Below the pieces are notes generated by a model. The model saw nothing but the letters and a program-made list of their open reading frames with translations, made no database searches and had not been told where the DNA came from. From IMG/VR virus record IMGVR_UViG_3300043137_000366: a DNA stretch of 58,860 nucleotides; one strand, given 5' to 3'. Each line of letters starts with the position of its first letter. Position 1 is the stretch's first letter. Made by a program: the position numbers and the translations under genes. This document shows, piece after piece, positions 4,018-56,937 of the stretch. This DNA is from a virus.

Positions 4018-4032
4018 TTCGCGTTACATCGA
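4018..4032 (-). promoter_or_regulatory. Dispersed motif copy TCGATGTAACGCGAA
   Basis: The TAA of the motif is the stop of 4024..4227. Lies 7 nt upstream of ATG 4010. Confidence 0.7.
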
Positions 4033-4227
4033 CATCACGATCAGTTTTCGGACCCGTGGGCGCGCCTTCAACACGCGCTCAGCAGCCTCGCGCATCCGCA
4101 CGGGCAATCCCGGAACCTGGCACTTCATGACCTCGCGGCAGCCCTTGGGTAGCGGCAGGCGGTTGTGGTGCTCGTCCGTCCAGTCTGACGCGGCCACCGC
4201 GCCTCCGAGGTGTTGGATGCGGTTCAT
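4024..4227 (-). CDS. Hypothetical protein
   Basis: 67-aa ORF with ATGA overlap upstream. Its TAA stop lies inside the dispersed motif copy at 4018-4032. Confidence 0.45.
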   Translation of the reverse strand: MNRIQHLGGAVAASDWTDEHHNRLPLPKGCREVMKCQVPGLPVRMREAAERVLKARPRVRKLIVMSM

Positions 4228-4679
4228 GATTGGAAGGGGGTGAGGGCCTGAAGGAGATCCAGTGATTGGTTCCGGGTCATGCCTTGACAGGCGTTTTTAG
4301 CAGCTACCACAAGCGCCCTGATTTCCTCCATCGTCGGCTCGTTGGGGAGGGTTTCGCGGACGCGGACCTTGGTCATCATCGCAAGGATTTCTCCATTCGG
4401 CTCGCAGCAATCGTAAACCTCGCCGTCGGTGCGCAAGTGAACATCCCACTCCCTCGCCTTGCGCGGCTCCGGCTTGTCGGCGGGCAAAGCCACCTCCTCC
4501 AAATACCCCATTTCCATCATCCAAGAGATCGCATCAATCGGAACCTTGGACGCCTGCCACCCCCTCACCGGGCTATTCCAGAACTCCACCGTCAGAGTCT
4601 TCCGGTCGGCCCTCCAGTAGTCGCCTCGGCGGTTGGTCCAGTGGTCTCGCGTTACGTCGATTTCAGGTGCAGCATTCAT
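4224..4679 (-). CDS. Hypothetical protein
   Basis: ATG at 4679 (MNAAPEIDV...). Two dispersed-motif copies flank this start. Confidence 0.55.
   Translation of the reverse strand: MNAAPEIDVTRDHWTNRRGDYWRADRKTLTVEFWNSPVRGWQASKVPIDAISWMMEMGYLEEVALPADKPEPRKAREWDVHLRTDGEVYDCCEPNGEILAMMTKVRVRETLPNEPTMEEIRALVVAAKNACQGMTRNQSLDLLQALTPFQS
4647..4660 (-). promoter_or_regulatory. Dispersed motif copy TCGACGTAACGCGA
   Basis: Lies 17 nt downstream of ATG 4679, inside the coding sequence. Confidence 0.65.
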
Positions 4680-4687
4680 TTCGGTTC

Positions 4688-4701
4688 TCGTGTTACGTCG
4701 A
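4688..4701 (-). promoter_or_regulatory. Dispersed motif copy TCGACGTAACACGA
   Basis: Followed by GAACCGAA and then ATG 4679. Confidence 0.7.
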
Positions 4702-4734
4702 CGCTCTGGCGCTGACAATTAAAAAAGCATGGGT

Positions 4735-4983
4735 TTATTGTTTTCGAGGACGTCCGCCCTTTTTCCCGTTCGCTCGGGCAGCCTCGGCCTTGCGCTCGGA
4801 GCGGATTGAGCCCATTGCGGCGGCCGGGGATTGTGGTGGCGCTCCCCTGACCTTGGCGACAGCAGCCGCATCCCCTTGAGCGTCCCGTTTCGTCCGGGCA
4901 AATCCGCCGGCCACGATCTCGGTGCCGTCGTTGATGGTCCACTCCCAGAGGTTGGGACTGGTTTTGGTGATGGTGGTTTTCAT
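4735..4983 (-). CDS. Hypothetical protein with basic C-terminal tail (GKKGGRPRKQ)
   Basis: ATG at 4983 (MKTTITKT...). Confidence 0.5.
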   Translation of the reverse strand: MKTTITKTSPNLWEWTINDGTEIVAGGFARTKRDAQGDAAAVAKVRGAPPQSPAAAMGSIRSERKAEAARANGKKGGRPRKQ

Positions 4984-5002
4984 TGATGTAGTTGTCAGAT
5001 CC

Positions 5003-5215
5003 TCAAGCCAGCCCATGCCGCTTCATGAGCACATGTGTAGCAGCTCTCGTCGGCCCGGTGACGTAATCGAGCAGGCTTTCCGCCTCGTCGTCTGTCACTT
5101 CCTCCTCAGCCTCCGCCGGCGTGATGCCGTAGTGGCTGGCGATGTTCTCGAGCACCGCGGCCTTGGTCTTGGCGTCGGTCGCTGCGAAGAATTTCTTGGT
5201 GATGGTGGCGTGCAT
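5003..5215 (-). CDS. Hypothetical small acidic protein (HYGITPAEAEEE motif)
   Basis: 70-aa ORF. Shares a G-I-T-x-A-E-A motif with 5449..5634. Confidence 0.55.
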   Translation of the reverse strand: MHATITKKFFAATDAKTKAAVLENIASHYGITPAEAEEEVTDDEAESLLDYVTGPTRAATHVLMKRHGLA

Positions 5216-5235
5216 TTTGGTGGGGGGTGGTGGGT

Positions 5236-5424
5236 TCAGGCGATAAACCCGTCGAGAGTTCCCTTGCCCTCGTCGTCGAGGATTTCGCGAGCCTCACCCA
5301 GGTTGCCCGGGCAGAGGTATTCGCGACCGAGCGGGCCATCGACTGGATCGACGGTGTAGGGATGGGCGTGGTGATCGCCCTTGGAGCAACCGCCGGTGCA
5401 GAATCGAATGGGGAGGATTTTCAT
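5236..5424 (-). CDS. Hypothetical protein
   Basis: 62-aa ORF with an ATG start, tightly packed in the operon. Confidence 0.45.
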   Translation of the reverse strand: MKILPIRFCTGGCSKGDHHAHPYTVDPVDGPLGREYLCPGNLGEAREILDDEGKGTLDGFIA

Positions 5425-5448
5425 GGTCGTTTTGGATTGGTTGAAGGT

Positions 5449-5634: not shown

Positions 5635-5915
5635 GGTTGGTTTTCTGGCTGGCGTCGCTCTCAGCAACGTCCACACAATAAACCCAGCGTTGGGTTCTTC
5701 AACACTTTTTTGCATGGGTATCGTATTTTCCTCGCCAGTCCTTATTCCATATGGTTTCTAGCGGTTTTCTGTTAGGTCTGTTAGAGTTTCCCTCTTGGAA
5801 TAAACATGAGCACTCCAACTGTTCAAAGTATCACTATTGATTTTCAACGAGTTAAGCCCTGGATCACGTAGCATTTGAACACTACTTTTGACGTTTTAGC
5901 TCCGATGGCAAAAAT

Positions 5916-5933
5916 AATGAGCCCGTTATTTTC
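5916..5933 (+). repeat. 18-nt direct repeat AATGAGCCCGTTATTTTC, copy 1
   Basis: Exact repeat of 6022-6039, within an AT-rich non-coding region. Confidence 0.9.
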
Positions 5934-5982
5934 GGGAAATCGTCACAACCTATTGAACGTCAATTACTTCCAGCTTTTAAAA

Positions 5983-6000
5983 AATGAGCCCATTAAACGG
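5983..6000 (+). repeat. Variant repeat AATGAGCCCATTAAACGG (AGCCC-N7-GGGCT hairpin potential)
   Basis: Shares AATGAGCCC with the 18-nt repeats. Confidence 0.7.
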
Positions 6001-6012
6001 GCTTATTAAACA

Positions 6013-6984: not shown

Positions 6985-7070
6985 GACCCCGGATTATGTC
7001 TGTTGTAACAAGTTATTGAGCGCGAAATAATCGTAAGTCGCTGTTTTTGTTGGTTTTGCGCAATTTTGGG

Positions 7071-7084
7071 TCGCGTTACGAAAA
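7071..7084 (-). promoter_or_regulatory. Partial dispersed-motif copy (TTTTCGTAACGCGA)
   Basis: The GTAACGCGA core is present and the TTGAC part is absent. Orientation is opposite to the downstream + gene. Confidence 0.4.
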
Positions 7085-7091
7085 CACCCCA

Positions 7092-7120
7092 TTGACGCCC
7101 GCCGCCCCCAGCGGTAAAAA
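7092..7120 (+). promoter_or_regulatory. Candidate sigma70-like promoter (TTGACG-N17-TAAAAA)
   Basis: The hexamers have 17-nt spacing and end 9 nt before the ATG at 7130. This would give a nearly leaderless mRNA. Confidence 0.3.
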
Positions 7121-7129
7121 CGCGGCACC

Positions 7130-7744
7130 ATGAACGACGAGCTGATCCCCGACAAAGGAGGCGACCGCAAGCCACGCCCCGGCAACCTCCGCCTCCTCAA
7201 CGATGGCGGGTTTCTCCGCGCCTTGGACGCCAATGGGCGCAAGTATCGCCTTCAGGCCGAGCCTGGCACCCCGGTTTCCGGTGTTGCTGCCACCGGCACC
7301 TTGACGGTCGACACCAACCCGACCGCCGGTGACACGATGACGATCGGCGCGACAACCTACACCTTCCGCGCCACTGCCGCTGTGGCCGGGGAGATCACGA
7401 TCGGGGCCAACCTCGCCGCCACGAAGCCGCTGATCGTCTCCGCCATCAATGGCGATTCGCTCAATGCGGCCAATGCCAGCGTGTCGGCTGCCACGTTCTC
7501 CTCGAACAACTGCACCCTGACCGCTCGCGTCGTCGGAGCTGCTGCGAACTCGGTCGCCACGACCGAGACCTACACCGCCGGCACGAACGTGTTCGCCGCG
7601 GCAACGTTGTCCGGTGGCGTCGATGGCACGGTGGCAAGCCGTGGCGACCGCCTGTTTGACACGTCGTTCACCTACCTCGCCACCGCGAACCTCGAAGTGA
7701 CGAGCACGAGCGGGTGGTACAAGCAGGCGCTGACGGCGTTGTGA
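7130..7744 (+). CDS. Hypothetical protein (A/T/G-rich, beta-rich; possibly virion-associated)
   Basis: 204-aa ORF containing TGTLTVDTNPTAGDTMTIGATTYTF, a pattern seen in phage structural or decoration proteins. Function not established. Confidence 0.55.
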   Translation: MNDELIPDKGGDRKPRPGNLRLLNDGGFLRALDANGRKYRLQAEPGTPVSGVAATGTLTVDTNPTAGDTMTIGATTYTFRATAAVAGEITIGANLAATKPLIVSAINGDSLNAANASVSAATFSSNNCTLTARVVGAAANSVATTETYTAGTNVFAAATLSGGVDGTVASRGDRLFDTSFTYLATANLEVTSTSGWYKQALTAL

Positions 7745-7754
7745 TCCCCTCTCC

Positions 7755-8105
7755 GGGCCTGCAATGGTTTCGACTCCATTGGGCCGCTCCCGAATAGCAT
7801 GCCGAGGTTGACCGGTTGGCCTCGTAAAAAGCCGGTCACAACAACAAACGGCACCAACACTGCCCGCTCCCGCACCGAAATCGGCGAACTCGCCCTTCCT
7901 GCCTGAGCATCACGCCCCGCCGAACGCCCGATCCCGGCGGGGAAACAAACCGGGCACCAAACGGAACCCAGCGCCGCAAAGACTGGGTGGTGGAGGCGGT
8001 CTCCGGATCGCCCTACGGCATGGCCCACCGTAACGGGCCGATTAAGCATGTCGAAGTTCAGGAGCGGAGCAGTGAAGGACGGCGGTTCGATCCCGCCCAG
8101 GTCCA
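7755..8105 (+). ncRNA. ssrA: tmRNA (ssrA), one-piece, CCA not encoded
   Basis: 5' end GGGCCTGCAATGGTTTCGAC pairs 7/7 with 3' CAGGTCC, including the G3:U70 wobble. T-arm is GGCGG-TTCGATC-CCGCC. An H-type pseudoknot (CGAGG/CCTCG and GACCGG/CCGGTC) lies at 7803-7837. A short tag ORF ends at TGA 7904-7906. Confidence 0.8.
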
Positions 8106-8227
8106 CTCAATCAACGGGAGCGCAGAAACCATCCAGTCGGCGACTAAGACCCGCAGGACAGTGGCGGTAGGTGAGAAACCGACCCCTCCCACCTTTCCCA
8201 AGCCCCGAGGCACTCCCCCTCTCCACC

Positions 8228-8830
8228 ATGCCCAACATCCTCGCCGATCTCCCGATCCTCCTCCCCTGCTTGGTCCGACGGGAGTTCACCCAGAACTTCA
8301 ATCGAGGGCATGGCGAGCTCATCCCGGCGCATGTTCTCGGGATCCGCTGCCAGGAGGGGCACTCCCTCCAGTTCCAGGTCAGATTTGAGGGCTCAACCTA
8401 CGGTGGCGCGATGTTTTGCCTTCCGATCCAGGCGCTTTGCTGGAAGGAATGCGAGAGCCCGCCATCGGAGCTTGTGCAGCCGTGGGACACCTTTTCCGAG
8501 CACTTTGCGGTCCATGCCTTCGCCCTCCTCAAGAACTCGCGTGCATGGCTCCTGAATCACGGGGCTGAGGCCTTCCCGAAGCGGATGGAGTCGCGATACC
8601 TCTTCACCGTCGACTTCAGCGGCAACGCCCTCGCCGACTGTTTCGAGCAGCACAAGCAACTCCACGTTCTTCAGGTCGAGGCCGGGTGGTTTGCCGCGGT
8701 GCCGAACAACCGCATGCTGTCCGACGACAGCGCGTTCTCGAAGCTGCCCGACGAGCTTCCCCGGTTCGAGTCACTGGCGGCCGACTTCTGTGGCGAGGTT
8801 ACGTTTCATCTGCCGGTGACTGCCCGTTGA
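8228..8830 (+). CDS. Hypothetical protein
   Basis: ATG at 8228 (MPNILADLP...). No recognisable motif. Its TGA stop lies inside a dispersed-motif copy. Confidence 0.55.
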   Translation: MPNILADLPILLPCLVRREFTQNFNRGHGELIPAHVLGIRCQEGHSLQFQVRFEGSTYGGAMFCLPIQALCWKECESPPSELVQPWDTFSEHFAVHAFALLKNSRAWLLNHGAEAFPKRMESRYLFTVDFSGNALADCFEQHKQLHVLQVEAGWFAAVPNNRMLSDDSAFSKLPDELPRFESLAADFCGEVTFHLPVTAR

Positions 8831-8841
8831 CAAAACGCGAG
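8825..8841 (+). promoter_or_regulatory. Dispersed motif copy CGTTGACAAAACGCGAG
   Basis: Contains the stop codon of 8228..8830. Lies about 105 nt upstream of the large terminase ATG. Confidence 0.7.
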
Positions 8842-10720: not shown

Positions 10721-10737
10721 CGTTGACGTAACGCGAG
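10721..10737 (+). promoter_or_regulatory. Dispersed motif copy CGTTGACGTAACGCGAG
   Basis: Starts 2 nt after the terL stop and lies 24 nt upstream of ATG 10761. Confidence 0.8.
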
Positions 10738-11285: not shown

Positions 11286-11510
11286 ATGAACCCCCTCCAA
11301 GAATGGACCTGCGGCAACACCCGCCCGCGCTGGTGGATGGGATACTCCCACTATTCCGCCGAGCGCGACCGATACCTCTACGTTGCGTTCCCGCTGAATC
11401 ACCTCGTCGCTGTGGCGTGGTGGGCGCACGACCTCTGGTGCCGGAAGCTACGGCATTCATCGTGGATTGATGGAGAGGTGGAGGAGAGAGCCGAAAGGAG
11501 GAGGCTGTGA
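11286..11510 (+). CDS. Hypothetical Trp-rich protein
   Basis: 74-aa ORF with an ATG start. Confidence 0.5.
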   Translation: MNPLQEWTCGNTRPRWWMGYSHYSAERDRYLYVAFPLNHLVAVAWWAHDLWCRKLRHSSWIDGEVEERAERRRL

Positions 11511-11953
11511 AAATCCTCTTCCTCGACGTCGATGGCGTCCTCAACCGCTGCGGGAAGTCCAATCAAGGGCTTGAAACAGACAAGTGCGACCTGCTGGCGG
11601 ATCTCTGCCGTCGCGTCGGGTGCAAGGTCGTGGTGTCCTCGACGTGGAGGAGATACCCTCACTTGATGGCGGATCGATTACTGCCAATGTTCCGCTCTCG
11701 CGGGATTGAGTGCGTGGGGCAGACTCCGATGCTGGAAAAGCCAAGCCCCGGCGGGCATGTCGTAGTCGCCGCCGCTCGCCACGAGGAAATCACCGCATGG
11801 CTCGCCGACCACGCCGAGGTTACGCAATACGCCATCGTGGATGATGACTCGGACGCCGACGACGGAACGGGCCGCTATGTGCGAACGGGGAGCTACGAGG
11901 GGATGACGGAGGCTCATGCCGCAAGAATCGAACAACTACTGAACCGACCATGA
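11507..11953 (+). CDS. HAD-superfamily phosphatase-like protein
   Basis: N-terminal ILFLDVDGVLN is the DxDx(T/V) HAD motif I. GTG start overlaps the upstream stop (GTGA). Confidence 0.65.
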   Translation: MKILFLDVDGVLNRCGKSNQGLETDKCDLLADLCRRVGCKVVVSSTWRRYPHLMADRLLPMFRSRGIECVGQTPMLEKPSPGGHVVVAAARHEEITAWLADHAEVTQYAIVDDDSDADDGTGRYVRTGSYEGMTEAHAARIEQLLNRP

Positions 11954-12096
11954 GCCTCTCCGTCTTCGTCTGGACCCTCGGTGATGTCATCGGGGTCGCC
12001 ACAATCGCCCTGTTTGTCCTCCTCTATGCCGGGATCCACGCATTCCTCGCATGGGAGAAGCTGGTGAGGTGGGTCAAATCCAAATTCAAGCCATGA
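11950..12096 (+). CDS. Small hydrophobic (single-TM) protein, 48 aa
   Basis: Not in the ORF track because it is under 60 aa. ATGA overlaps at both ends. Sequence begins MSLSVFVWTLGDVIGVATIALFVLLYAGIHAF... Confidence 0.4.
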   Translation: MSLSVFVWTLGDVIGVATIALFVLLYAGIHAFLAWEKLVRWVKSKFKP

Positions 12097-12467
12097 CCCC
12101 CACCGAACTCGAAGCCTACGACGCCATGATGCGCGACCGTGACCGGTGGCGTGAGAAGGCGGAGGGGTTGCACCCCGCTACCGAAAACGCCGTCGTCCAG
12201 ATGATCCGCCAGCGTGGCGAGGTTGGTCGTAAAAAATACGGCATTGGCATGGACCGGCGCGACCTGTCGCTGGCGCAGTGGATTCAGCACCTCCAGGAGG
12301 AGCTCGCCGACGGACTGCAGTACGCCGAGCGGATGAAGGGAGGCGCGAGCCTGCTAGATGAGGCCAGATCCATCATGGAGACGCTGGCGGACGAGCGGGG
12401 ATGGGAAGTGGCCGCTGATTGGGTGAAGAGGTTTGACGAGCAATTCCCCATCACCCCGTTGACGTAA
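12093..12467 (+). CDS. MazG-like nucleotide pyrophosphohydrolase, putative
   Basis: KKYGIGMDRRDLSLAQWIQHLQEELADGLQY resembles the all-alpha NTP-PPase pattern (DUF550 or MazG-like). Confidence 0.4.
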   Translation: MTPTELEAYDAMMRDRDRWREKAEGLHPATENAVVQMIRQRGEVGRKKYGIGMDRRDLSLAQWIQHLQEELADGLQYAERMKGGASLLDEARSIMETLADERGWEVAADWVKRFDEQFPITPLT

Positions 12468-12473
12468 CGCGAC
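12457..12473 (+). promoter_or_regulatory. Dispersed motif copy CGTTGACGTAACGCGAC
   Basis: The TAA of the motif is the stop codon of 12093..12467. Lies 21 nt upstream of ATG 12494. Confidence 0.8.
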
Positions 12474-28126: not shown

Positions 28127-30316
28127 ATGAACGAACAACTCGAACGTGTGATCGACCAGCCCGAGATCGGGATTGACCAGATCGACCCCTACGGCCCACG
28201 CATGCCGTTTCCGACCTCCTACGTGCTCACCCGCGAGCAGGAGGATGAATTGGTCGACCATGCGATGAAGCGCCTGGAGCAACTGGAGGACGAAACCGGG
28301 CGGAAGCGCACCGGGAAAGGCGACTGGTGGATGATGGGAGATCAGGGCATCGAGAGCAACGACCCGCTCAACACCAAGCGGGCATCGCGCACGTTCTTTG
28401 GCAAGCGTCGCCTCTACGACCTCGTCTATGACAACGACGTCGATCACCGCGCCGTCATCCTCGGTGGCATCTTTGCGGAGTCGAATCTTGTCGTGCCGTT
28501 GGCCCGCCGGATCGCCCGCCAGATGACTGCCCGCGCCACCAACTACTTTTTCAGCACCGACCCATGGTTCGCCGTTTATCCAGTCGGCGAGAACGATCGC
28601 GTGCGTGCCGACAAGGCTGGCCGATACACCCGCTGGAAGATGGAGCAGGCGCACATGAAGCGTGCCCTGGAGCTCGGCATCGAGCGGGCGTTTGTCGTCG
28701 GCGAGTCGGTCATCAAGACCTCCTGGAAATCTGACCAACAGGTTTACGTAACGCGAGCGACCGTCCTGGTGGATGCGCAAGGCAAGGACATCATCGCTGC
28801 CGATGGCGACTACATCCTGCCGACCGATCTCTGGATCCTGCCAATGGTGACGGACCCGGTGACGGGCGAGCCGGTGCAAGACCAGATCGCCGTGCTGAAG
28901 CGTGACGGACAGACCCAGCAGCCGGCGGAAATGCTTTGGGCGCCGAAGCTCGTCACCCGCCGCATCACCCACTACAACGGACCCGAGGCCAAAGTGGTTC
29001 ACTTCCTCGACTTCCTTTGCCCTCTAGAGGCTGCGAGCATCCAAGAGGCCGACTGTGTGTGCCACCTCTACGACATGCCAGTCATGGATCTGGCGGACCA
29101 GTGGAAGAAGCAAGAGGAGGGCATGGCCGCTGAGGAGGGGATGGAAAGCACCCGCAAGGCGATCAACTTGATTCGTGAGCTTTCCAACGCTACCGGCGAG
29201 CCCAAGAACGCCCAGACCGCCTACGACCCAAGCACGACCGGCGCGGACTCCCGTCAGGACCGCACCGACCCGGTGGTTTCCATCGTGGAGTTCCACCTTC
29301 GCTATGATGCCGACGGTGATGGCATGCTCGAAGACGTGATGCTGGTGGTCGACCGGAACAGCCGCACCCCGATCTTCTACGACTACGAGGCCAACGTCAC
29401 CCCCGACGGCAAGCGCCCGTTCTCGGTGGTGCGTGTCAACGAGCGCCCAGGCCGCTGGTATGGCATCGGTGCCTTGGAAATGTTCGAGACGACCCAGCAA
29501 ATCGTCGACCTCACGGTGAACCGCTGGAACTTCAGCCAGTCGCGCGCGTCCCGGGTCGATTTCTGGAGCCCGCACAACACGCTGGAAGGCCGCTCGAACC
29601 CGCACCTCACGCTCAACGGCGGGATGACCTACACCCCGCTTGGCAACAAGAAGGCGGCGGACTGCTTGGAGTCGGTCTATCTGAGCAACAACAAGGACGT
29701 CGAGCTCAAGGAGATGATCGACTTCTTCATGCAGCTCGCCATGAACGAATCCGGCGTGATGAACGCCAATGACACTGGCGCGGCCGGACTCGACACAGCG
29801 AAGCTGGCGACCGGCATCCGCAACATCGAGAAGAACGGACAAGAGATGTTCTCGCTCTACCTCGGCCACTTGGAGCCAGGGATTGCGAACGCACTTCAGA
29901 AGATGGTCATGCTGCTTTTCGCCAACATGGACCAGATGGAGGTCTATCGCTACTTCGAGGAGGGCGAGCCCGGAGGCGAAGGAGCGGAGGGCATGCAGGC
30001 GATCGACCCGGGCGAAATCTCCGACATGGAGATCGACACTCAGATCCTTCTCTCCCGCTACCGCGGTGAGCAGGTGTTGGAGGGATCGATGCGAGCGGCT
30101 GAGTTGGTGGAAAAATTCTACAACCTCCCCTACCCCGTCCAAATGACGACCGCGCAACTTTACCGCGACATGCTGAAAGCCCTTCAGGTGCAGAACGCGG
30201 ACAAGATCATCGTGCCAATCGACCTCGGCGGCATGGGCGGAGGCCCCGGCCAGCAACCGGGTGCATTGTCTGCCGCCGTCGCTCCGAAACCACGTCAAGC
30301 CACTCCAAACCTGTGA
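28127..30316 (+). CDS. Portal protein, putative
   Basis: 729 aa. Called from its size and its position upstream of scaffold and capsid. No motif-level proof. Confidence 0.6.
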   Translation: MNEQLERVIDQPEIGIDQIDPYGPRMPFPTSYVLTREQEDELVDHAMKRLEQLEDETGRKRTGKGDWWMMGDQGIESNDPLNTKRASRTFFGKRRLYDLVYDNDVDHRAVILGGIFAESNLVVPLARRIARQMTARATNYFFSTDPWFAVYPVGENDRVRADKAGRYTRWKMEQAHMKRALELGIERAFVVGESVIKTSWKSDQQVYVTRATVLVDAQGKDIIAADGDYILPTDLWILPMVTDPVTGEPVQDQIAVLKRDGQTQQPAEMLWAPKLVTRRITHYNGPEAKVVHFLDFLCPLEAASIQEADCVCHLYDMPVMDLADQWKKQEEGMAAEEGMESTRKAINLIRELSNATGEPKNAQTAYDPSTTGADSRQDRTDPVVSIVEFHLRYDADGDGMLEDVMLVVDRNSRTPIFYDYEANVTPDGKRPFSVVRVNERPGRWYGIGALEMFETTQQIVDLTVNRWNFSQSRASRVDFWSPHNTLEGRSNPHLTLNGGMTYTPLGNKKAADCLESVYLSNNKDVELKEMIDFFMQLAMNESGVMNANDTGAAGLDTAKLATGIRNIEKNGQEMFSLYLGHLEPGIANALQKMVMLLFANMDQMEVYRYFEEGEPGGEGAEGMQAIDPGEISDMEIDTQILLSRYRGEQVLEGSMRAAELVEKFYNLPYPVQMTTAQLYRDMLKALQVQNADKIIVPIDLGGMGGGPGQQPGALSAAVAPKPRQATPNL
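28743..28757 (+). promoter_or_regulatory. Dispersed motif copy TTTACGTAACGCGAG (intragenic)
   Basis: Lies within the portal coding sequence (encodes VYVTRA). Confidence 0.5.
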
Positions 30317-30989: not shown

Positions 30990-30990
30990 A

Positions 30991-31009
30991 GATGCACCTT
31001 TATTGCATC
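30991..31009. promoter_or_regulatory. Palindrome GATGCA-N7-TGCATC (operator candidate)
   Basis: Perfect 6-bp arms, 2 nt upstream of the ATG of the reverse gene. A third ATGCA box follows at about 31026. Confidence 0.5.
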
Positions 31010-31035
31010 AGCACCCTATTGACAAATGCAATCCG

Positions 31036-31052
31036 TTCGCGTTTTGTCGACG
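31036..31052 (-). promoter_or_regulatory. Dispersed motif copy CGTCGACAAAACGCGAA
   Basis: Oriented with the reverse-strand gene 30615..30989, about 47 nt upstream of its ATG. Confidence 0.65.
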
Positions 31053-31053
31053 C

Positions 31054-32103: not shown

Positions 32104-32120
32104 CGTTGACGTAACACGAA
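32104..32120 (+). promoter_or_regulatory. Dispersed motif copy CGTTGACGTAACACGAA
   Basis: Lies 22 nt upstream of the capsid ATG at 32142. Confidence 0.8.
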
Positions 32121-33614: not shown

Positions 33615-33655
33615 GCCGCGCGGGGGTGAAAGCTCCCGCGCGGCCTCCCTTTTTT
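33615..33655 (+). terminator. Rho-independent terminator candidate
   Basis: 10-bp GC stem GCCGCGCGGG/CCCGCGCGGC with a 10-nt loop, followed by CTCCC and TTTTTT. Confidence 0.5.
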
Positions 33656-41290: not shown

Positions 41291-41931
41291 CCCCGGATCA
41301 CTGGATTTCATTGGCCAAGGTTTTCGGGGGTGCCCTCGGGGCGATCATCACCGCCGGGATTCCCGGCTTGATGTACCTCTCAAAGATCCGGCGCGAGGAC
41401 ATGGCCAAGCTCGAAGCCGATGCCGCACGTCGCCGTGATGACCTGATGAATCACGTCACGAAGGAATGCTTCCGCCTGATCAGGGCCAGCATGGAACAGG
41501 CTGCTGAGGAGGCAGGAGTCCTTGAAACTTACGTGATCCGACTGATGTTTGCGACCGGCTTCTCGGTTTCAGCACCACTCGTTCGCCGACAAGTCATGGT
41601 GGACACCTCCGGGGCGTCCATTGCCCTAATGCAGTCCGATGATCAAAAGACGAGATACCAACTCACGGCTCCAGCGCCTTACGAGATCCAGACGCACAGC
41701 CACCCGGAGGCGGAAGAGGTGACTGTCGTTTACGGAATGATGGAAGACCTCGACAGCGGAAAAGTTTACTACCCTGGCGATATTTGGACGATTCCGCCAA
41801 ACACCGCGCACCGGGTTCTCTTCTACTCAGGCACGACGGTCTGCATCGAGGTCCGTCCGCCGCTGCCGCTCCTTCGCGACGTTCCTCTCGATCTTGAGCA
41901 TCTCCACCTCATCGGTGGCGGCAGACCCTAA
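41287..41931 (+). CDS. Membrane-anchored cupin-domain protein
   Basis: N-terminal TM segment WISLAKVFGGALGAIITAGIPGLMYL. Cupin motifs HSHPEAEEVTVVYG and PGDIWTIPPNTAHRV. Confidence 0.6.
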   Translation: MTPDHWISLAKVFGGALGAIITAGIPGLMYLSKIRREDMAKLEADAARRRDDLMNHVTKECFRLIRASMEQAAEEAGVLETYVIRLMFATGFSVSAPLVRRQVMVDTSGASIALMQSDDQKTRYQLTAPAPYEIQTHSHPEAEEVTVVYGMMEDLDSGKVYYPGDIWTIPPNTAHRVLFYSGTTVCIEVRPPLPLLRDVPLDLEHLHLIGGGRP

Positions 41932-42317
41932 AGCTTATCCGCAGCGCGCTTCGCGGCTTTGACGATGAAGTCGACCTCGATGGGGTTTCGCTCGCGGATG
42001 ATCTTCCGGAAAGTCGCCATCGCGGTCAGTTCGTGCGTAGGCGCTTTCACTCTTGCGTAGTCGTCCGGAAGAGCGTTCGCCTTCTTGACCTTGTCCTCGG
42101 TCCATAGCGCGTAGATCGCCTTGTAGACGTCGCTCGCAGGCTTGAGTCCAAGCCCTTTGGTGAGGATGACGGAAACCGTCTCCCATCGCACGCGCCTGTT
42201 ATTCGTGACCTTCCAGACGGTCGATTTCGACATTTTGAGCGCCTTCCCAACATCGCCCAGGGTCAGGCCCTTGCCTTCGATGAGCGCCAGCACTTCACTT
42301 CCGTAGGTAGCCTTCAT
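41928..42317 (-). CDS. Helix-turn-helix DNA-binding protein
   Basis: ATG at 42317; the track start at 42359 is TTG. HTH segment LTLGDVGKALKMSKSTVWKV. Its stop overlaps the stop of the convergent + gene. Confidence 0.55.
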   Translation of the reverse strand: MKATYGSEVLALIEGKGLTLGDVGKALKMSKSTVWKVTNNRRVRWETVSVILTKGLGLKPASDVYKAIYALWTEDKVKKANALPDDYARVKAPTHELTAMATFRKIIRERNPIEVDFIVKAAKRAADKL

Positions 42318-42377
42318 TTCGTCGAGAAGCCTGCGCTCGCGCTCGCGTTTCGGCAACAATAAAGATGGGCACTAAAA

Positions 42378-44496: not shown

Positions 44497-44513
44497 TTCG
44501 TGTTACGTCAACG
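44497..44513 (-). promoter_or_regulatory. Dispersed motif copy CGTTGACGTAACACGAA
   Basis: The TGA of the motif is the stop codon of the helicase gene. Lies 7 nt upstream of the primase ATG. Confidence 0.8.
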
Positions 44514-46028
44514 ACCCGTGCGAGAGCGACTAAATTTTTCATCAAGGAATGCTTTTGCCTCCTTGGCCGTGCATGTGACGGGGTCGGGGTGGCGGAATTT
44601 TTGCAAAAGCGCGACCTGGCCAACGGTGGCGAGTTTTTCTTTTGAGCGGTTGAACAGGCGGTCGAGCAGCATCGACGCCTCCCCCATCGTGGGTGGGCAT
44701 TTGATGTGGAAGCGTTCCAGCGTCGTCCGCTGGCCCTGGGTGGCGGGCTTGGTTTCCCAGCCCATCACCGGGGCATACTCGCGCATCTTAGTGTCCTTCA
44801 GCAGAGCGGCCACGTTCTCAAGCGAAACGTATCGCTCCTTCCGTCGGACGCCCTCAGCAAGTTCGCGGATCAACGCGGCCTCGCGCTCGGCCTCAGCGGT
44901 GCCAACAGCCTCGGCGAGGTCAGTTTCGTCGCCGTTCTCCAGCACCTTCGTGATCGATTCCTCTTCCGCTTCACTCTTGGCGACAAGAGACGCCGCTTTT
45001 GCGAGGTTGTGTTTCCCGTGGAGCCAGAGGAAGTCGAGGAACAGTAGATCCTTCTTGCCAGGGTACAGGCGCGTGCCACGTCCGACCATCTGGGCGAGCA
45101 GCCCGCGAGACTTCGTCGGACGGAGAACCACGACGCAATCGATCGAGGGTTCGTCATACCCTTCGGTGAGCAGCATCGCGTTACACAGACACCTGAACTC
45201 GCCCTTTCCGTACTTGGCGAGAATTTCGGAGCGGTCTGGAGAATTGCCGTCGACATGGCAGGCCGACACGCCGGCACGCTCGCACGCGGCCACGAATTTC
45301 TTGGAGGTTTCGACCAGCGGTAGAAAGACGAGGATTTTCCGGTCAGGCAGCGTGGCGAGACATTCGGCAATCGTGTCCAGGTAAGGCTCGATGGCGCTGG
45401 CGATGCCGCCTGAGTCGAGATCGCCCGCCAGTTGCGCAATCTGGGAAATGTCGATCTTGAGCGGGATCGACTTCACCATGACCGGCGCAAGATACCCCTG
45501 CTTGATCAGGTCCAGAATCGTGCATTCGTAGGCGAGGTTGTCAAAGAAAGCGGCCAGCGACCGCTTGTCGCCGCGGTCGGGCGTGGCGGTGACTCCGAGC
45601 ACACGGGCATCGAAGTAGTTGATCGTCGTCTGCCACTGGTCAGCGAGCGCGTGGTGGGCCTCGTCCGCTACCACGAGCCCAAAGTGATCTTTCGGCCACG
45701 ATTCAAGGCGAGCACGCTGGAGCGTCTGCACGGATGCCACGACAACGTCAGCGTCACGGGTGGCGCGTTGATCCGCCTTCTCGATCTCCACGCACAGGCC
45801 CGTGACTTTGTGGACCTTGTCGGCGGCCTGATTCACCAATTCCTCCCGGTGAGCGAGGATCAGGGATCGCTCGTTGCGCTTTTTATGGAAGCGGTGGGCG
45901 ATTCCGGCGAAACAGAGCGTTTTGCCCCCTCCGGTCGGAAGGACTCCGAGTTGTCGCCGGAAGCCGTCGGCAAAGCCCTTGGCGACGGCCGCGATGAAGT
46001 TGTTTTGGTAGGGGCGAAATTCGATCAT
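44508..46028 (-). CDS. SF2 DEAD/DEAH-box helicase
   Basis: LPTGGGKT (motif I), VVADEAHH (motif II), GVTATP (motif III), QMVGRGTR (motif VI). Confidence 0.85.
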   Translation of the reverse strand: MIEFRPYQNNFIAAVAKGFADGFRRQLGVLPTGGGKTLCFAGIAHRFHKKRNERSLILAHREELVNQAADKVHKVTGLCVEIEKADQRATRDADVVVASVQTLQRARLESWPKDHFGLVVADEAHHALADQWQTTINYFDARVLGVTATPDRGDKRSLAAFFDNLAYECTILDLIKQGYLAPVMVKSIPLKIDISQIAQLAGDLDSGGIASAIEPYLDTIAECLATLPDRKILVFLPLVETSKKFVAACERAGVSACHVDGNSPDRSEILAKYGKGEFRCLCNAMLLTEGYDEPSIDCVVVLRPTKSRGLLAQMVGRGTRLYPGKKDLLFLDFLWLHGKHNLAKAASLVAKSEAEEESITKVLENGDETDLAEAVGTAEAEREAALIRELAEGVRRKERYVSLENVAALLKDTKMREYAPVMGWETKPATQGQRTTLERFHIKCPPTMGEASMLLDRLFNRSKEKLATVGQVALLQKFRHPDPVTCTAKEAKAFLDEKFSRSRTGR

Positions 46029-49280: not shown

Positions 49281-49295
49281 TTCGCGTTACGTTGA
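49281..49295 (-). promoter_or_regulatory. Dispersed motif copy TCAACGTAACGCGAA
   Basis: Followed by CC and then ATG 49278. Confidence 0.7.
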
Positions 49296-49310
49296 TGGTT
49301 TGTCCAAGAG

Positions 49311-54079: not shown

Positions 54080-54097
54080 AGGTGATTCGGTGCGGTG

Positions 54098-54114
54098 TTC
54101 GCGTTACGTCAACG
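54098..54114 (-). promoter_or_regulatory. Dispersed motif copy CGTTGACGTAACGCGAA
   Basis: The TGA of the motif is the stop codon of 54109..54297. Confidence 0.8.
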
Positions 54115-54297
54115 CCTGGAGCGATAGTAAGCGACCTTACGATGGTGCTTCATCGACCAGAGAGAAAAGCCCGCGCTAACAAGGAAAGAAGCAGCGGCGG
54201 CCCACGGTGCCGTCATCAAGACGAGAAAGCCGGGAATCGCGAACGCGAACGCGGCCAGAAGAAGCAACCTTGCGCAGAAGCGGTGGTTCTTCTCCAT
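54109..54297 (-). CDS. Small two-TM membrane protein
   Basis: MEKNHRFCARLLLLAAFAFAIPGFLVLMTAPWAAAASFLVSAGFSLW. An alternative start lies at 54339. Confidence 0.4.
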   Translation of the reverse strand: MEKNHRFCARLLLLAAFAFAIPGFLVLMTAPWAAAASFLVSAGFSLWSMKHHRKVAYYRSRR

Positions 54298-54311
54298 GAG
54301 TTCGTAGTAGG

Positions 54312-54530
54312 TCACTTGACACCTCCCTTCTTCACGCACTTCGGGCAGTTTCCCAAGCGCCAGCCCTTGCGGGTCATTTCGAGTTTAACGGCCTTGTCGA
54401 TCTTGTCGCCAATCTCGGATTTCTCCGCCGTGACGACTGCCGGGGTAATCACAAGGTCCAGCTTGCAAGTCCGGCAGTGCCTCACGGCCCCCGCCCTGAC
54501 AGTGAAAAGATTTCCAACGATGGTGCTCAT
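54312..54530 (-). CDS. Zinc-ribbon protein (CxxC...CxxC)
   Basis: Contains CRTC...CPKC. 72 aa. Confidence 0.5.
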   Translation of the reverse strand: MSTIVGNLFTVRAGAVRHCRTCKLDLVITPAVVTAEKSEIGDKIDKAVKLEMTRKGWRLGNCPKCVKKGGVK

Positions 54531-54781
54531 GCTTCGTTTTCTGCGAGGTGCTGTTTGATGACAGATGCCCGGTAGCGATAAACCTTGCCGGGGATGATGG
54601 TGATTTTCGGGATCTGGAGATTGGTCAGGGTGTTGGCCGAGACATCCAGGATGCCACAGACCTGAGCCGGAGAAAGGAGATCAAGATTGTCGCGGTGCTC
54701 GGCAAGCAGGTGCTCGATCGTTCCGGTAATGACCCGGTCAATGACCTCCTTGCGCTCGGTCGGTGTCAGGTCGAGGTGCAT
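54527..54781 (-). CDS. Excisionase/MerR-like HTH protein, putative
   Basis: ATG at 54781 (TGATG overlap). Contains LSPAQVCGILDVSANTLTNL...GKVYRY. Confidence 0.5.
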   Translation of the reverse strand: MHLDLTPTERKEVIDRVITGTIEHLLAEHRDNLDLLSPAQVCGILDVSANTLTNLQIPKITIIPGKVYRYRASVIKQHLAENEA

Positions 54782-54975
54782 CAGACGGATGCCTTGAGCT
54801 TTGAGCGGACGAGTTGCTCCAGCCATGCCGATGCGGAAAGACCAGCATTAAAAGCCGCTTTTTGAGTCGCTTCCCAAATAGCTGGATCAATCGTGATTGA
54901 TGGCCTCGTTTTGAGGATCTTCTTCGGCGGTTGTCCTCGTCCTCTTTTGGGTTTAGGGGTCGCTGGTTTGTTCAT
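54781..54975 (-). CDS. Ribbon-helix-helix regulator (Cro-like position)
   Basis: PSITIDPAIWEATQKAAFNAGLSASAWLEQLV fits an RHH pattern. First gene of the leftward replication operon. ATG at 54975. Confidence 0.55.
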   Translation of the reverse strand: MNKPATPKPKRGRGQPPKKILKTRPSITIDPAIWEATQKAAFNAGLSASAWLEQLVRSKLKASV

Positions 54976-54977
54976 GC

Positions 54978-54996
54978 GTGGGTATTTCTTACCCAC
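54978..54996. promoter_or_regulatory. Operator-like palindrome GTGGGTA-N5-TACCCAC
   Basis: Perfect 7-bp arms just upstream of ATG 54975. Further ACCCAC-like half-sites lie at 55002-55007 and 55071-55076. Confidence 0.55.
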
Positions 54997-55091
54997 TAAA
55001 AACCCACCGACAATAAAATTCTAATAGGGGAATAAAAATACCTACGAAAAATGCACTTGTGATGCTGTTTCACCCATGCGATCATCAAGCC

Positions 55092-55319
55092 ATGAGCGAA
55101 GAACAACAAAAGCCAGGACGTCCAAAAACGGGCTCCAAGAAGATTCGCCCAAACTTCTCATTATCGCCCGAGACCTTTGAAATGCTGAAGGCCGAGGCAG
55201 AACGAAAAGACGTCAGCATGTCGGCGCTTTTGACGCTTTGGATCAGAGAAAAAATCGGGCGTGATCTGAGGGTTGTAGAGTCTCGAGAAGCAAAGTCATC
55301 CCGCTCAGGTCAAGCATGA
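55092..55319 (+). CDS. Ribbon-helix-helix regulator (repressor candidate)
   Basis: RPNFSLSPETFEMLKAEAERKDVSMSALLTLWI fits an RHH pattern. First gene of the integrase-containing operon. Confidence 0.6.
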   Translation: MSEEQQKPGRPKTGSKKIRPNFSLSPETFEMLKAEAERKDVSMSALLTLWIREKIGRDLRVVESREAKSSRSGQA

Positions 55320-55332
55320 ATTTCCAATCGGA

Positions 55333-55377
55333 TTCTAACAGATAACGCCGATTTGTCCCGTAAAATTTCTGTTAGAA
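55333..55377. repeat. 10-bp perfect inverted repeat TTCTAACAGA-N25-TCTGTTAGAA
   Basis: Read directly, in the gap between the RHH gene and the membrane-protein gene. Confidence 0.85.
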
Positions 55378-55389
55378 AAAACGCACCCC

Positions 55390-55647
55390 ATGAAAGTTTT
55401 CCTTTGCCTCATTGTGTCGGGGATTGGCTTCGCGGGTTGCATCTATGCCGCCAGCGCCATTGCGTTGCTCTGCCGCCGTGAATGGAGGGACGGCACATCG
55501 GCACTTGCCCTGTGCCTCATCCCGCTCGGGGTTTATGCCGTCGCCTGGCGCATCTTGCCGCTGGAGAACTGGCTGATCCTTCCCGGTGCGCTCGCCGCAA
55601 TTTTCAGCGCAATTACATTTGCCTTGGTCCTCAAAAATGGAGCCTGA
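55390..55647 (+). CDS. Small three-TM membrane protein (superinfection-exclusion candidate)
   Basis: 85 aa and strongly hydrophobic, located between the repressor candidate and the integrase. Confidence 0.55.
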   Translation: MKVFLCLIVSGIGFAGCIYAASAIALLCRREWRDGTSALALCLIPLGVYAVAWRILPLENWLILPGALAAIFSAITFALVLKNGA

Positions 55648-55649
55648 CC

Positions 55650-56822
55650 ATGAAAGTCAAATTCGGAAGTGTGGAGCTTTCCGGCTACCCGTGGAAACAC
55701 CACTCCGGGAAGACCTACTTCCGGTTCGATTGGTTCGATGGCAGGCGCAAGCGCCACATCACGCGGGCGAGTGAAGCCAAGGCGAAGAAGGCCGCTTACG
55801 AGAAGGCGAAGGAACTGCATCGGCAGACAAAGGATCTCAACGCGCTGCCCGATCACCAGCAACGCGCCATCCAGCGCCTGCTCGACGTCGATCCGTCGCT
55901 TCAGGTCATCGACGAGTTCTTGCTATGGCGGGCGCGAGAAAGGCCAGAGACCGTCATCGAGGACGTCATTGCCGCCTTCATGGAGTCGGTGGCGCTGAAC
56001 AAGGGTCAATCCGCCCAGAATGAAAAGACGCTCAAGGTTCACACAGGGGCGCTCCTCAAGGCCTTCTCGGGTCGCTCGGTGTCGTCGATCTCAACCGCCG
56101 AGCTTAACGCTCACATCGGCCGAAATCCGAAGCACTCGCCGCGCACCCGGGCAAATTGCCGTGGGGCCCTGATCCGGATCTGGAATTGGTGCCAGGCCAA
56201 CGGCCACATTCCCCAGGGCGAGAAGACTGCCGCGGCACTGACGATGGCTCCGATCGTAGCTCGCAAGACGCCGGAGACTTACTCGCCCGACGAGCTGGCG
56301 GAAATGCTCCTCTACGTCCAGCCGCGCTACTTTCCATGGCTGGCTGCATGCGCCTTCGGTGGATTTCGGACGGATGAGATTTACCCGCTCGCCGGCGGCA
56401 CCAAGTCGCCCCTCGACTGGTCGGATTTCAAATGGGATCGAGACGTCGTTGTGGTGCGCCCTGAAACAGGCAAGACCGGTCGGCGCATCGTCCCGATCCT
56501 CCCGGCGCTCCGGCGGTGGCTGGAGCCTATCAAAAAGCCGTCCGGACCGGTTGGCGAAGGAGTGGCCCCGTCGATGAAACCAGGGCGCGGCAGGCTGCCC
56601 CAGACGGTTCTCCTCGGCGACCTCGTGGGCGGATGGCGACCAAACGCCCTGCGTCACTCGTGGATCTCCTACCGGGCCGCGCTTGTCGGCATCGGTCAGA
56701 CCTCGATGGAGGCCGGGAACAGCGAGAGCGAGGCGAAGCGTTCCTACAACGACGCGATGTCACGCGCCGAAGCTGAGGCCTGGTTCTCACTCCAGCCGGA
56801 GAACTTTGGAGAACCTGCCTGA
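55650..56822 (+). CDS. int: Tyrosine recombinase (phage integrase)
   Basis: ATG at 55650. C-terminal NALRHSWISY...SY.. gives the R-H-Y catalytic pattern. R (FGGFRTDE) lies upstream. Confidence 0.85.
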   Translation: MKVKFGSVELSGYPWKHHSGKTYFRFDWFDGRRKRHITRASEAKAKKAAYEKAKELHRQTKDLNALPDHQQRAIQRLLDVDPSLQVIDEFLLWRARERPETVIEDVIAAFMESVALNKGQSAQNEKTLKVHTGALLKAFSGRSVSSISTAELNAHIGRNPKHSPRTRANCRGALIRIWNWCQANGHIPQGEKTAAALTMAPIVARKTPETYSPDELAEMLLYVQPRYFPWLAACAFGGFRTDEIYPLAGGTKSPLDWSDFKWDRDVVVVRPETGKTGRRIVPILPALRRWLEPIKKPSGPVGEGVAPSMKPGRGRLPQTVLLGDLVGGWRPNALRHSWISYRAALVGIGQTSMEAGNSESEAKRSYNDAMSRAEAEAWFSLQPENFGEPA

Positions 56823-56839
56823 AAATCACTGGAAATACG

Positions 56840-56864
56840 GTGGGCCCGGTGGGGTTCGAACCCT
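56840..56864 (-). other. attP core candidate: tRNA 3'-end-like fragment
   Basis: The minus strand reads GGGTTCGAACCCCACCGGGCCCACC. That is a T-loop, the 3' T-stem, a 7-nt acceptor strand, discriminator A and CC. No 5' half of a tRNA is present. Confidence 0.4.
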
Positions 56865-56921
56865 GTTTCCCCGAATTGCTCGCGTTGCGTGAATGATTCT
56901 AGAGTCCTTTACTGAAACCTT

Positions 56922-56937
56922 TTGGCGTAACGCGAAC
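56922..56937 (+). promoter_or_regulatory. Dispersed motif copy TTGGCGTAACGCGAAC
   Basis: Lies in the gap between the attP candidate and the convergent gene. Confidence 0.6.

Follow-up and report, generated by a model that had tools for sequence, protein, structure and literature searches.

A short oriented sequence word at gene junctions of a putative temperate Verrucomicrobia podophage is kept in position and respelled across its family

To our knowledge, stoperators and start-associated motifs have so far been known from mycobacteriophages alone, and how phages of Verrucomicrobia regulate their genes is hardly known at all. The stoperator of mycobacteriophage L5 also holds a -35-like TTGACA. 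In the middle promoters of phage T4, an asymmetric MotA box of about 10 nt replaces or overlaps the -35 element, is present in dozens of transcription-oriented copies in operons, and is read by a two-domain phage protein. In Cluster A mycobacteriophages the sites lie in promoters and short intergenic gaps, are oriented with transcription, and have a motif that drifts with the repressor (PMC9283540, PMC6550527). For the start-associated sequences of Cluster K (SAS, ESAS) the function is still unknown (PMC3203893; PMC12699233). The element studied here is a 17-nt asymmetric word, CGTTGACGTAACRCGAR, which recurs in the IMG/VR virus record IMGVR_UViG_3300043137_000366 (58,860 nt; this whole stretch is called the window) and which a preliminary description, made from the letters alone, had compared with both mycobacteriophage systems. 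The word proved to be real, oriented, biased towards gene junctions and under purifying selection, and its positions were conserved across a phage family in which each phage has its own variant. In behaviour it is nearest to the Cluster A stoperators and in placement nearest to the Cluster K SAS, but it is a member of neither.

Fourteen strong and three weaker copies were identified in the window, where about 0.3-0.6 would be expected by chance. The exact 14-mer TTGACGTAACRCGA was present five times, as had been counted before, against 0.00 in 100 dinucleotide shuffles, and the 17-mer with at most three mismatches gave 16 matches, against 0.56 expected and a maximum of 3 in the shuffles, so the enrichment over dinucleotide shuffles was strong. 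A scan with a position weight matrix (PWM) was bimodal, with 14 sites of 22-30 bits, three sites of 14-15 bits and none of 10-14 bits, and about 0.29 sites of at least 14 bits would occur by chance. Every copy listed in the preliminary description exists; two had been missed (42342-42358 and 56879-56895, both on the minus strand), and four are better placed 1-2 nt from their former registers, at 4646-4662, 28741-28757, 49281-49297 and 56920-56936 (Table 1). The three weak copies retain just the 3' half (CGYAACGCGA), and all of them lie in non-coding control DNA. Beyond the 17-19 nt no sequence conservation and no flanking repeats were observed at the copies, and neither dyad symmetry nor a fold was consistent among them. 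The exact 16-mer gave four single matches against IMG/VR, all in unrelated contigs and at chance level.

All 14 strong copies run with the local genes (p = 6e-5), as had been claimed. The former wording that the word sits at gene boundaries holds for the 11 strong copies which are not wholly within a gene (8.3% expected, p = 4e-10), and does not hold for the other three (4646, 27984 and 28741), which are fully intragenic. The distance from motif to ATG was 2-7 nt for four of the 14 copies, 20-24 nt for five, 46 nt for one and 105 nt for one, with three intragenic. The five stop codons described within the motif (4024-26, 8828-30, 12465-67, 44508-10 and 54109-11) agree with the ends of open reading frames (ORFs), and the ATG described at 2-24 nt after the motif was found in all eight cases (4018, 4687, 10721, 12457, 32104, 42342, 44497 and 49281). 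Two of the three sense frames of the word hold a stop (TGA, TAA), which accounts for the gathering of sense copies at gene ends by coding constraint. The antisense frames are open in all three cases, and the number of antisense strong copies within genes was zero. Coding constraint cannot account for these missing copies, thus the orientation rule was selected.

Two close relatives could be compared with the window, one covering the late region (L006, with a portal 99% identical) and the other covering the early region (L070, with about 85-92% nucleotide identity); related loci are given here by L numbers. All seven shared copies were kept, including those which deviate from the consensus, and the copy at 42342 is the same in L070 with its deviations. 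The motif had changed at 4 of 119 nt (3.4%) and the flanks at 123 of 989 nt (12.4%, p = 0.001). Upstream of copy 49281 the gene has been replaced, and homology with L070 sets in precisely at the motif's 5' edge. Within genes, the portal of the window has Y-V-T-R for Y-K-T-x, which recreates GTAAC-GCGAG, and at the 3' end of the giant gene, where A-L-x-K-R-E is conserved, the codons of each phage spell its own motif variant. From such codon choices, the intragenic copies appear to be under nucleotide-level selection.

When related phages were scanned, the 17-mer of the window was not carried by distant relatives (portals 45-67% identical), but each relative examined had its own spelling, with the core AC-RDAAC-RY.AR, at homologous places. 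These places were upstream of the genes of scaffold, portal and capsid, downstream of the helicase gene or ahead of that of the primase, and in front of a small gene of XRE-type helix-turn-helix (HTH) protein. T(T/C)GAC-RWAAC-GCGAR was the spelling of the window and of a Luteolibacter pohnpeiensis KCTC 22041 prophage, ..AC-RAAAC-RTRAAG that of L011 and L072, CCCCAAC-GAAAC-GTRAAG that of L021 and L162, ..AGAAC-ATCRAG that of L028, L155 and L076, and TAAAC-GACAA that of L010. The spelling is uniform within a genome and different between phages, even among Luteolibacter prophages, so the reader of the motif is most likely encoded by the phage and not by the host, and would most likely co-evolve with its site. 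Matches to the 12-nt core numbered 80 in about 60 family loci, and 31 of them had their end no more than 30 nt ahead of the first ATG of a same-strand ORF, where 5% would be expected (p = 6e-20); the spacing from core to ATG has modes at about 4 nt, the main one, and about 20 nt. The core was also oriented in relatives, for instance with six plus-strand and no minus-strand core matches in L007 and seven against one in L028/L155. Most of what a metagenome scan with the primase profile yielded was distant AAA_25 proteins, no more than about eight loci belonging to the family.

The prophage of the cultured L. pohnpeiensis KCTC 22041 (L071 5933-6196 and L008, NZ_JAENIJ010000025.1) lies beside a tRNA-Phe gene, and its spelling, TCGAC-AAAAC-GCGAA, is almost the window's own, giving a route to experiments. 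It may be rearranged or defective, because host genes directly abut its helicase gene.

The L5-type stoperators and the Cluster K SAS, to which the preliminary description had likened the word, are indeed the closest known systems, although defining features of both are missing. As in Cluster A, where the sites are asymmetric, 13-17 bp long, present in many copies and often touching stop or start codons, each phage has a variant of the motif of its relatives, the phage is temperate, the sites are oriented with transcription, and the candidate regulator gene lies in the early arm in early-gene orientation. Unlike in Cluster A, the site has an unrelated sequence, the host belongs to Verrucomicrobia, the virion would be that of a podophage, and 14-17 sites are present rather than about 20-30. 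Cluster A phages are without a CI/Cro-type divergent switch, unlike the window, whose probable switch near the integrase is free of copies and has its own palindromes and two ribbon-helix-helix (RHH) proteins, whereas gp71 of L5 acts at Pleft. No homologue of a gp71-type repressor (a monomer with HTH and a second DNA-binding domain) was found, the candidate here having an XRE fold.

With the Cluster K SAS the word shares asymmetry, a place few nt before the ATG of a subset of genes, preference for ATG, conservation in a phage group, an upstream stop codon which is sometimes within the motif, and rare reverse copies without link to a gene. The SAS has a Shine-Dalgarno (SD) core, AGGAG, at 3-7 nt from the start, whereas only 4 of the 14 copies in the window are that close. 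GGAG or AGGA does not occur in the window variant; some relatives end with TAAAGG(AG), which is partly SD-like. In addition, the SAS is confined to non-structural genes, while the word is also placed before the genes of terminase, portal, capsid and (in relatives) scaffold, and also has intragenic copies and a further spacing class, near 20 nt. T4 middle promoters differ in having a good sigma-70 -10 element at a fixed distance, which is missing here, where many copies are also too close to the start, and MotA/AsiA homologues were not found. Lambda nut sites (boxA/boxB) and RfaH ops sites are similar in being orientation-dependent and within transcription units, and copy 54098 at a terminator and pentaloop hairpins of relatives add to this likeness; they are few and contain a defined hairpin or pause element, unlike the 14-17 unstructured copies of the window.

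The former conclusion that the word is not a sigma70 promoter was borne out. An ordinary sigma-70 promoter was rejected after a -10 element at 16-18 bp was looked for at every copy and a consensus scan was run; the -10 was clear at one of the 14 strong copies, 12457 (TAGTTT), the consensus scan gave no promoter at motif copies, and 2-7 nt separate four copies from the ATG. At 12457 the order is TTGACG (in the motif), 17 nt, TAGTTT, 6 nt and ATG 12494, which is a leaderless sigma-70-type geometry. Copy 31036 overlies the spacer, -10 and discriminator of the scaffold promoter and is inverted relative to it, so a protein bound there can solely repress the scaffold promoter; the -35 of the reverse gene lies 10 nt downstream of it. 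The two promoters stand back to back in region 30990-31053 with overlapping -35 hexamers, and this geometry is retained in L006, where the reverse gene starts with GTG. In 12 lineages a hexamer like TTGACA has its start 35-37 nt ahead of the scaffold ATG, and in most of them it forms the 5' half of the motif; in the window the scaffold -35 stands alone outside the motif. Weak copy 7070 is 5 nt upstream of the -35 of the sigma-70-like promoter of gene 7130. In Akkermansia (Verrucomicrobia), promoters have canonical -35/-10 elements and about 10% of transcription start sites are leaderless (PMC4782308). Most genes of the window are without SD sequence and have C/A-rich, G-poor leaders, e.g. caccaccaaccacccgccaatATG, and several promoter-like elements end 6-9 nt before the ATG, which together suggest that leaderless or near-leaderless mRNAs are frequent.

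Several other kinds of site were rejected. A promoter of single-subunit phage RNA polymerase (T7/N4 type) was ruled out, since no polymerase or sigma gene was detectable: Pfam and PHROG scans of about 60 proteins, giant protein included, gave no RNA polymerase or sigma domain, and there was no PDB sequence match. The sequence does not fit an extracytoplasmic function (ECF) sigma promoter (AAC...CGT) or an integration host factor (IHF) site. A Chi-like site was also discarded, the orientation flipping with the single reverse gene and not with the direction of replication or packaging.

An RNA hairpin at the copies of the window was tried and rejected, as nine copies were folded without consistent structure (z between -1 and +1.1, one at -2.3), and CGT/RCG and CGTT/AACG pairings tried by eye were broken in several copies. 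In at least six relatives, a 6-bp hairpin with compensatory stem changes takes its loop and closing pairs from the copy in the capsid leader. In this set 96% of the cells were paired and 18 cells were changed on both sides, a level reached by 0 of 500 shuffles in a statistic that is biased upward by sequences picked for folding. Where the motif is within this hairpin it is transcribed, which counts against reading it as a promoter. The hairpin occurs without the motif in L021, L027 and L023, and the motif without the hairpin in the window and L028; each occurring without the other, the two are separable.

The capsid-leader hairpin is also a feature in its own right. It was found in most family members with 5-6 bp and an A-rich loop of 4-5 nt, 25-35 nt before the capsid ATG (L001 8749, L007 15308, L008 ~15240, L011 15200, L032 ~14760, L035, L021, L027 and L023; z about -3), and its stems differ between lineages by compensatory changes. 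It is probably a stabiliser of the mRNA 5' end or a processing site.

Two RHH proteins, two MarR-like proteins and the HTH protein had been named as possible binding factors; the HTH protein is conserved family-wide, the others are not, and no MarR domain was present in the gene tables of the relatives' early arms. In all relatives whose sequence includes this part of the genome, the XRE-HTH gene (41928-42317) is found at the same place and is invariably preceded by a nearby motif copy; its protein is the prime candidate for the reader. An AlphaFold2 (AF2) model, built from a 39-sequence alignment with a predicted local distance difference test (pLDDT) score of 96, gave an XRE-type HTH followed by three C-terminal helices; a single-sequence model with pLDDT 54 was discarded. 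The nearest folds were XRE repressors and antitoxins, the best Foldseek matches being HigA, C.Esp1396I and Stl (E ~0.006 or weaker). A role as sigma factor was rejected, a weak Sigma70_r4 match (E = 0.005) being outweighed by the XRE fold assignment. The protein family has 48 representatives among 1.8 billion proteins and is restricted to these phages; a word-index protein search found the identical protein alone, and a locus search with the alignment found one locus.

The 83-bp region 54976-55058 contains the palindrome GTGGGTA-N5-TACCCAC with related half-sites and makes no use of the 17-nt motif. It is probably the lysogeny switch.

The reading preferred here, with a probability of about 0.4, is that the motif is the asymmetric site of a phage-encoded, co-evolving DNA-binding protein, which serves as operator at promoter copies and as stoperator-like block in operons. 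We infer four parts of it: that the reader binds DNA, which protein it is, that it represses and does not activate, and that elongation is blocked. The motif would be read on double-stranded DNA by a protein of the phage, for which XRE-HTH is the prime candidate. Where a copy covers the core of a sigma-70-type leaderless promoter, as at 12457 (TTGACG being the -35), at 31036 (scaffold spacer/-10) and at the relatives' copies over the scaffold -35, binding would block initiation. The other copies are sense-oriented in long operons, and the protein bound there could, as at a stoperator, affect RNA polymerase during elongation depending on orientation. The outcome might be that modules are silenced or timed (terminase, giant protein, portal, capsid, recombination, primase and the gene of the regulator itself). 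The squeeze of the sites into minimal gene junctions would be partly forced, because two of three sense frames hold a stop codon. A stoperator or operator network fits somewhat better than the alternatives, because of the family-wide phage-specific spellings, the overlap with promoter cores and the HTH gene always preceded by a copy. Such a DNA-reading protein would account for more of the observations than the other readings, namely orientation, junction bias, intragenic copies, promoter overlap, weak copies in control DNA, spellings and the conserved HTH.

Several observations speak against a DNA-bound repressor of this kind. The 8 kb of tail and lysis genes contain no copy, and in the PWM scan none fell in 54976-55058 or 5716-5983, two large divergent control regions in which one would expect an early lytic promoter. 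With no copy at the switch near the integrase, that switch must have a repressor other than the reader of the motif. The spacing modes of about 4 and 20 nt are not predicted by a pure roadblock, and together with the copy-free switch they are left unexplained. Strict sense orientation comes free for an RNA element and needs a special mechanism for a DNA-bound protein, and the capsid-leader hairpin with compensatory changes in several relatives looks like an RNA-type feature. XRE proteins usually bind palindromes as dimers, and the motif is asymmetric. The residue of the XRE-HTH recognition helix (W, H or L) did not cleanly track the 3' half of the motif in the six phages compared.

An alternative at the level of RNA is that the word is a start-associated element, bound in the mRNA by a phage-encoded RNA-binding factor which promotes or represses initiation, protects the message or directs its processing, thereby marking cistron starts in a mostly SD-less genome. 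Sense orientation would then be automatic, as is the case in 14 of 14 strong copies, and the 31 of 80 family core matches within 30 nt of an ATG, with their main mode at about 4 nt, would be expected. The associated genes all start with ATG and are without SD sequence, the upstream stop codon lies inside the motif as in the SAS (PMC3203893), and the capsid-leader hairpins with compensatory changes in at least six lineages place the motif in a transcript. This reading is nevertheless rather doubtful. Three strong copies are far from starts (27984, 28741 and 4646), and the first two seem to be selected as nucleotides; copy 31036 seems to be upstream of the promoter of the reverse gene and would be untranscribed in its own sense; and the weak copies 7070 and 56879 are antisense or in non-genic DNA. 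The window variant has neither complementarity to the anti-SD sequence nor stable structure, most genes are SD-less regardless of the motif, an RNA-binding protein was not identified, and the hairpins also precede motif-less capsid genes (L021, L027 and L023). A more specific form, in which the motif is a phage-specific mRNA code for cistron starts and a factor reads AC-RDAAC-RY.AR before SD-less AUGs to gate initiation or processing, is unlikely.

It is also improbable that the word belongs to promoters specific to the phage, whether as a promoter in a single block or as an activator box of the -35 region, which host RNA polymerase together with a phage factor would use to start the middle and late transcripts of each module with a very short leader or none. 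The copies do stand at module starts (terminase, portal, scaffold, capsid, recombination and primase), the capsid gene lies between an upstream motif and a strong downstream terminator, and the 5' half TTGACR is the -35 hexamer of the phage's own sigma-70-like promoters, the motif starting 35-36 nt before the ATG at 12457, at 32104 and at the scaffold genes of 12 lineages. Homology breakpoints just 5' of the motif imply that it travels with the downstream gene, and the phage-specific spellings would suit a specificity factor of the phage. Yet no -10 is conserved after the motif (clear at 1 of 14 strong copies), and for the 2-7 nt class a sigma-70-type start would land in the downstream gene, whose N-terminus is conserved. 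Also, an RNA polymerase or sigma gene was not found and the HTH fold is XRE, not sigma region 4; the 5' half of L162/L022, CCCCAAC, is not -35-like; copy 31036 is over the scaffold -10, where an activator cannot work; hairpins including the motif imply a start site upstream of it; and copy 54098 would fire directly into a terminator. With the strongest early terminator 14 nt downstream and three or four small immediate-early genes before it, this last copy recalls nutR followed by tR1, and copy 32104 precedes the capsid terminator, which transcription of the tail genes has to pass. If the word were where a processive antiterminator loads, in the manner of nut or ops and read in the transcript or the non-template strand, these layouts and the orientation dependence would be explained, but this is very improbable with 14-17 copies, mostly without downstream terminator, with no boxB-like structure in the window, with no NusG-, N- or Q-like protein recognised in domain scans, and with one copy overlapping the -10 of an opposite-strand promoter. 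The breakpoint exactly at the 5' edge of 49281, and the position of the copies at module boundaries, could further be explained by a word with no regulatory role, such as a conserved linker or microhomology spread by recombination between modules, or the relic of a mobile mini-element. That is hardly credible for copies that changed less than their flanks even where they deviate from the consensus, that are recreated in genes by synonymous and even non-synonymous codon choices, that are strictly in sense orientation, that have nothing conserved outside 17-19 nt and no flanking repeats, and that keep their positions across lineages with portals merely 45-65% identical.

What is new is an oriented gene-start word in a new host phylum, kept across a whole abundant uncultured phage family. 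It gives a testable regulatory grammar, in which one short oriented word is respelled per phage at the same module starts. If it were a stoperator, it would have arisen independently of that of actinobacteriophage Cluster A and with a different protein fold, making such sites a general strategy; if it were read in RNA, it would offer the first mechanistic explanation of SAS-type motifs and a private, co-evolving alternative to the SD sequence in Verrucomicrobia phages. The word could be used for placing start codons and module borders in metagenomic contigs and for orthogonal pairs of site and reader.

Table 1. Copies of the motif and other features of the window, in order of position
Feature	Position	Strand	Remarks
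Leftward arm, small genes	5715 down to 1	-	
Copy TGTCGATGTAACGCGAA	4018-4034	-	23.4 bits; TAA is stop of gene 4024-4227; 7 nt to ATG of gene 3642-4010
Copy AATCGACGTAACGCGAG	4646-4662	-	Codons 6-11 of gene 4224-4679; second of tandem pair, 41 nt after 4687
Copy CGTCGACGTAACACGAG	4687-4703	-	Intergenic; 7 nt to ATG at 4679
Rightward late operon	~5984-41931	+	Terminase, 4862-aa DarB-like helicase/methylase protein, portal, scaffold, capsid, tail and lysis genes
Weak copy TGTTTTCGTAACGCGAC	7070-7086	-	14.9 bits; 3' half only; antisense to local genes
Promoter of gene 7130	7092-7130		TTGACG 7092-97 / 17 nt / TAAAAA 7115-20 / 9 nt / ATG 7130
Copy CGTTGACAAAACGCGAG	8825-8841	+	TGA is stop of gene 8171-8830; gene of terminase large subunit 105 nt on
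Copy CGTTGACGTAACGCGAG	10721-10737	+	Begins 1 nt past terminase stop; 23 nt to ATG at 10761
Copy CGTTGACGTAACGCGAC	12457-12473	+	TAA is stop of gene 12051-12467
Giant ORF, 4862 aa	13535-28123	+	25% of genome; SNF2/DEAD helicase and methyltransferase domains; DarB-like
Copy CGTTGACGAAACGCGAG	27984-28000	+	3' end of 4862-aa gene, codons ALTKRE; portal ATG 127 nt on
Copy GGTTTACGTAACGCGAG	28741-28757	+	Inside portal gene; residues Y-V-T-R, family consensus Y-K-T-x
Promoter of reverse gene (30615-30989)		-	TTGTCA / 17 nt / TAAAGG / 7 nt / ATG; leaderless geometry
Promoter of scaffold gene	31019-31054	+	TTGACA 31019-24 / 17 nt / TTTTGT 31042-47 / 6 nt / ATG 31054; leaderless geometry
Copy CGTCGACAAAACGCGAA	31036-31052	-	64-bp divergent gap; directed toward single reverse gene 30615-30989
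Copy CGTTGACGTAACACGAA	32104-32120	+	21 nt to major capsid ATG at 32142
Intrinsic terminator	33615-33644	+	After capsid gene; 13-bp stem, 11 G-C pairs; strong
XRE-type HTH protein, 129 aa	41928-42317	-	C-terminal helical domain; last early-arm gene; candidate reader
Leftward early/replication arm	54975 down to 41928	-	
Copy TGTTGCCGAAACGCGAG	42342-42358	-	24 nt before XRE-HTH gene
Copy CGTTGACGTAACACGAA	44497-44513	-	TGA is stop of helicase gene 44508-46028; 7 nt to primase ATG at 44489
Copy CATCAACGTAACGCGAA	49281-49297	-	2 nt to ATG 49278
Intrinsic terminator	54083-54058	-	11-bp stem and T6; directly downstream of copy 54098
Copy CGTTGACGTAACGCGAA	54098-54114	-	TGA is stop of gene 54109-54339; strongest early-arm terminator 14 nt on
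Divergent control region, 83 bp	54976-55058		Between RHH genes 54781-54975 (-, 64 aa) and 55059-55319 (+, 86 aa, beside integrase)
Integrase	55482-56822		attP core resembling tRNA 3' end just after integrase stop
Weak copy CATTCACGCAACGCGAG	56879-56895	-	Adjoins attP core (tRNA 3'-end-like, ~56842-56868); inverted partner of 56920
Weak copy TTTTGGCGTAACGCGAA	56920-56936	+	With 56879 makes inverted repeat TCGCGTTGCG / CGTAACGCGA

The two ends of the window are identical over 124 bp (1-124 and 58737-58860), thus the assembly is complete and closes into a circle of about 58.7 kb. Among 50,697 phage records of GenBank there was no nucleotide match and no match to the portal protein, and the integrase used as query against IMG/VR found nothing. 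Judging from its genes, the phage is a temperate podophage of Verrucomicrobia with a Luteolibacter-type host. A portal of the SU10_portal family, an adaptor and fibre proteins were the podophage markers. Metagenomes are rich in relatives of the portal, and those borne by genomes are restricted to Verrucomicrobiota (Luteolibacter, Akkermansiaceae, Chthoniobacterales, Methylacidiphilales and Cerasicoccus). About 3500 residues of the giant protein are without recognisable domain or PDB sequence match; its homologue in L007, the one relative checked, had DarA_C, DUF8437 and Helicase_dom matches.

In the attP region (56842-56936), the core resembles the 3' end of a tRNA (GGGTTCGAACCCCACCGGGCCCACC, minus strand), with the inverted repeat of weak copies beyond it. 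There is a likeness to lambda sib retroregulation, in that integration would part this repeat in the attP arm from int.

A full-length transfer-messenger RNA (tmRNA) gene was present at 7755-8108 (+), between gene 7130-7744 and the gene preceding terminase (Rfam RF00023, 109.5 bits, E = 7e-42), with GTNTARSRTEIGELALPA as the tag peptide given by ARAGORN. The tmRNA is missing at this locus in relatives, two of which have tRNA-Met there instead. A link between motif and tmRNA, by cleavage at stop-overlapping motifs and ribosome rescue, was considered and rejected: none of the terminase-upstream regions of 10 relatives has a tmRNA, so the two are not coupled. Genes for RNA repair or RNA handling recur in the family, including a HAD_SAK_2 domain protein in the window (11507-11953, +), an RNA ligase in L072 (1487-2140) and an RNase T-like exonuclease in L073 (814-1380).

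A second, unrelated repeat family was observed in nearly all gaps between the small early genes of relatives (L072 2547-4969; L073 4680-9444). It consists of a weak hairpin, then (C/T)TTGTT, then CTTnCGAA few nt before the ATG, an arrangement reminiscent of the T4-like promoter-stem-loop cassettes.

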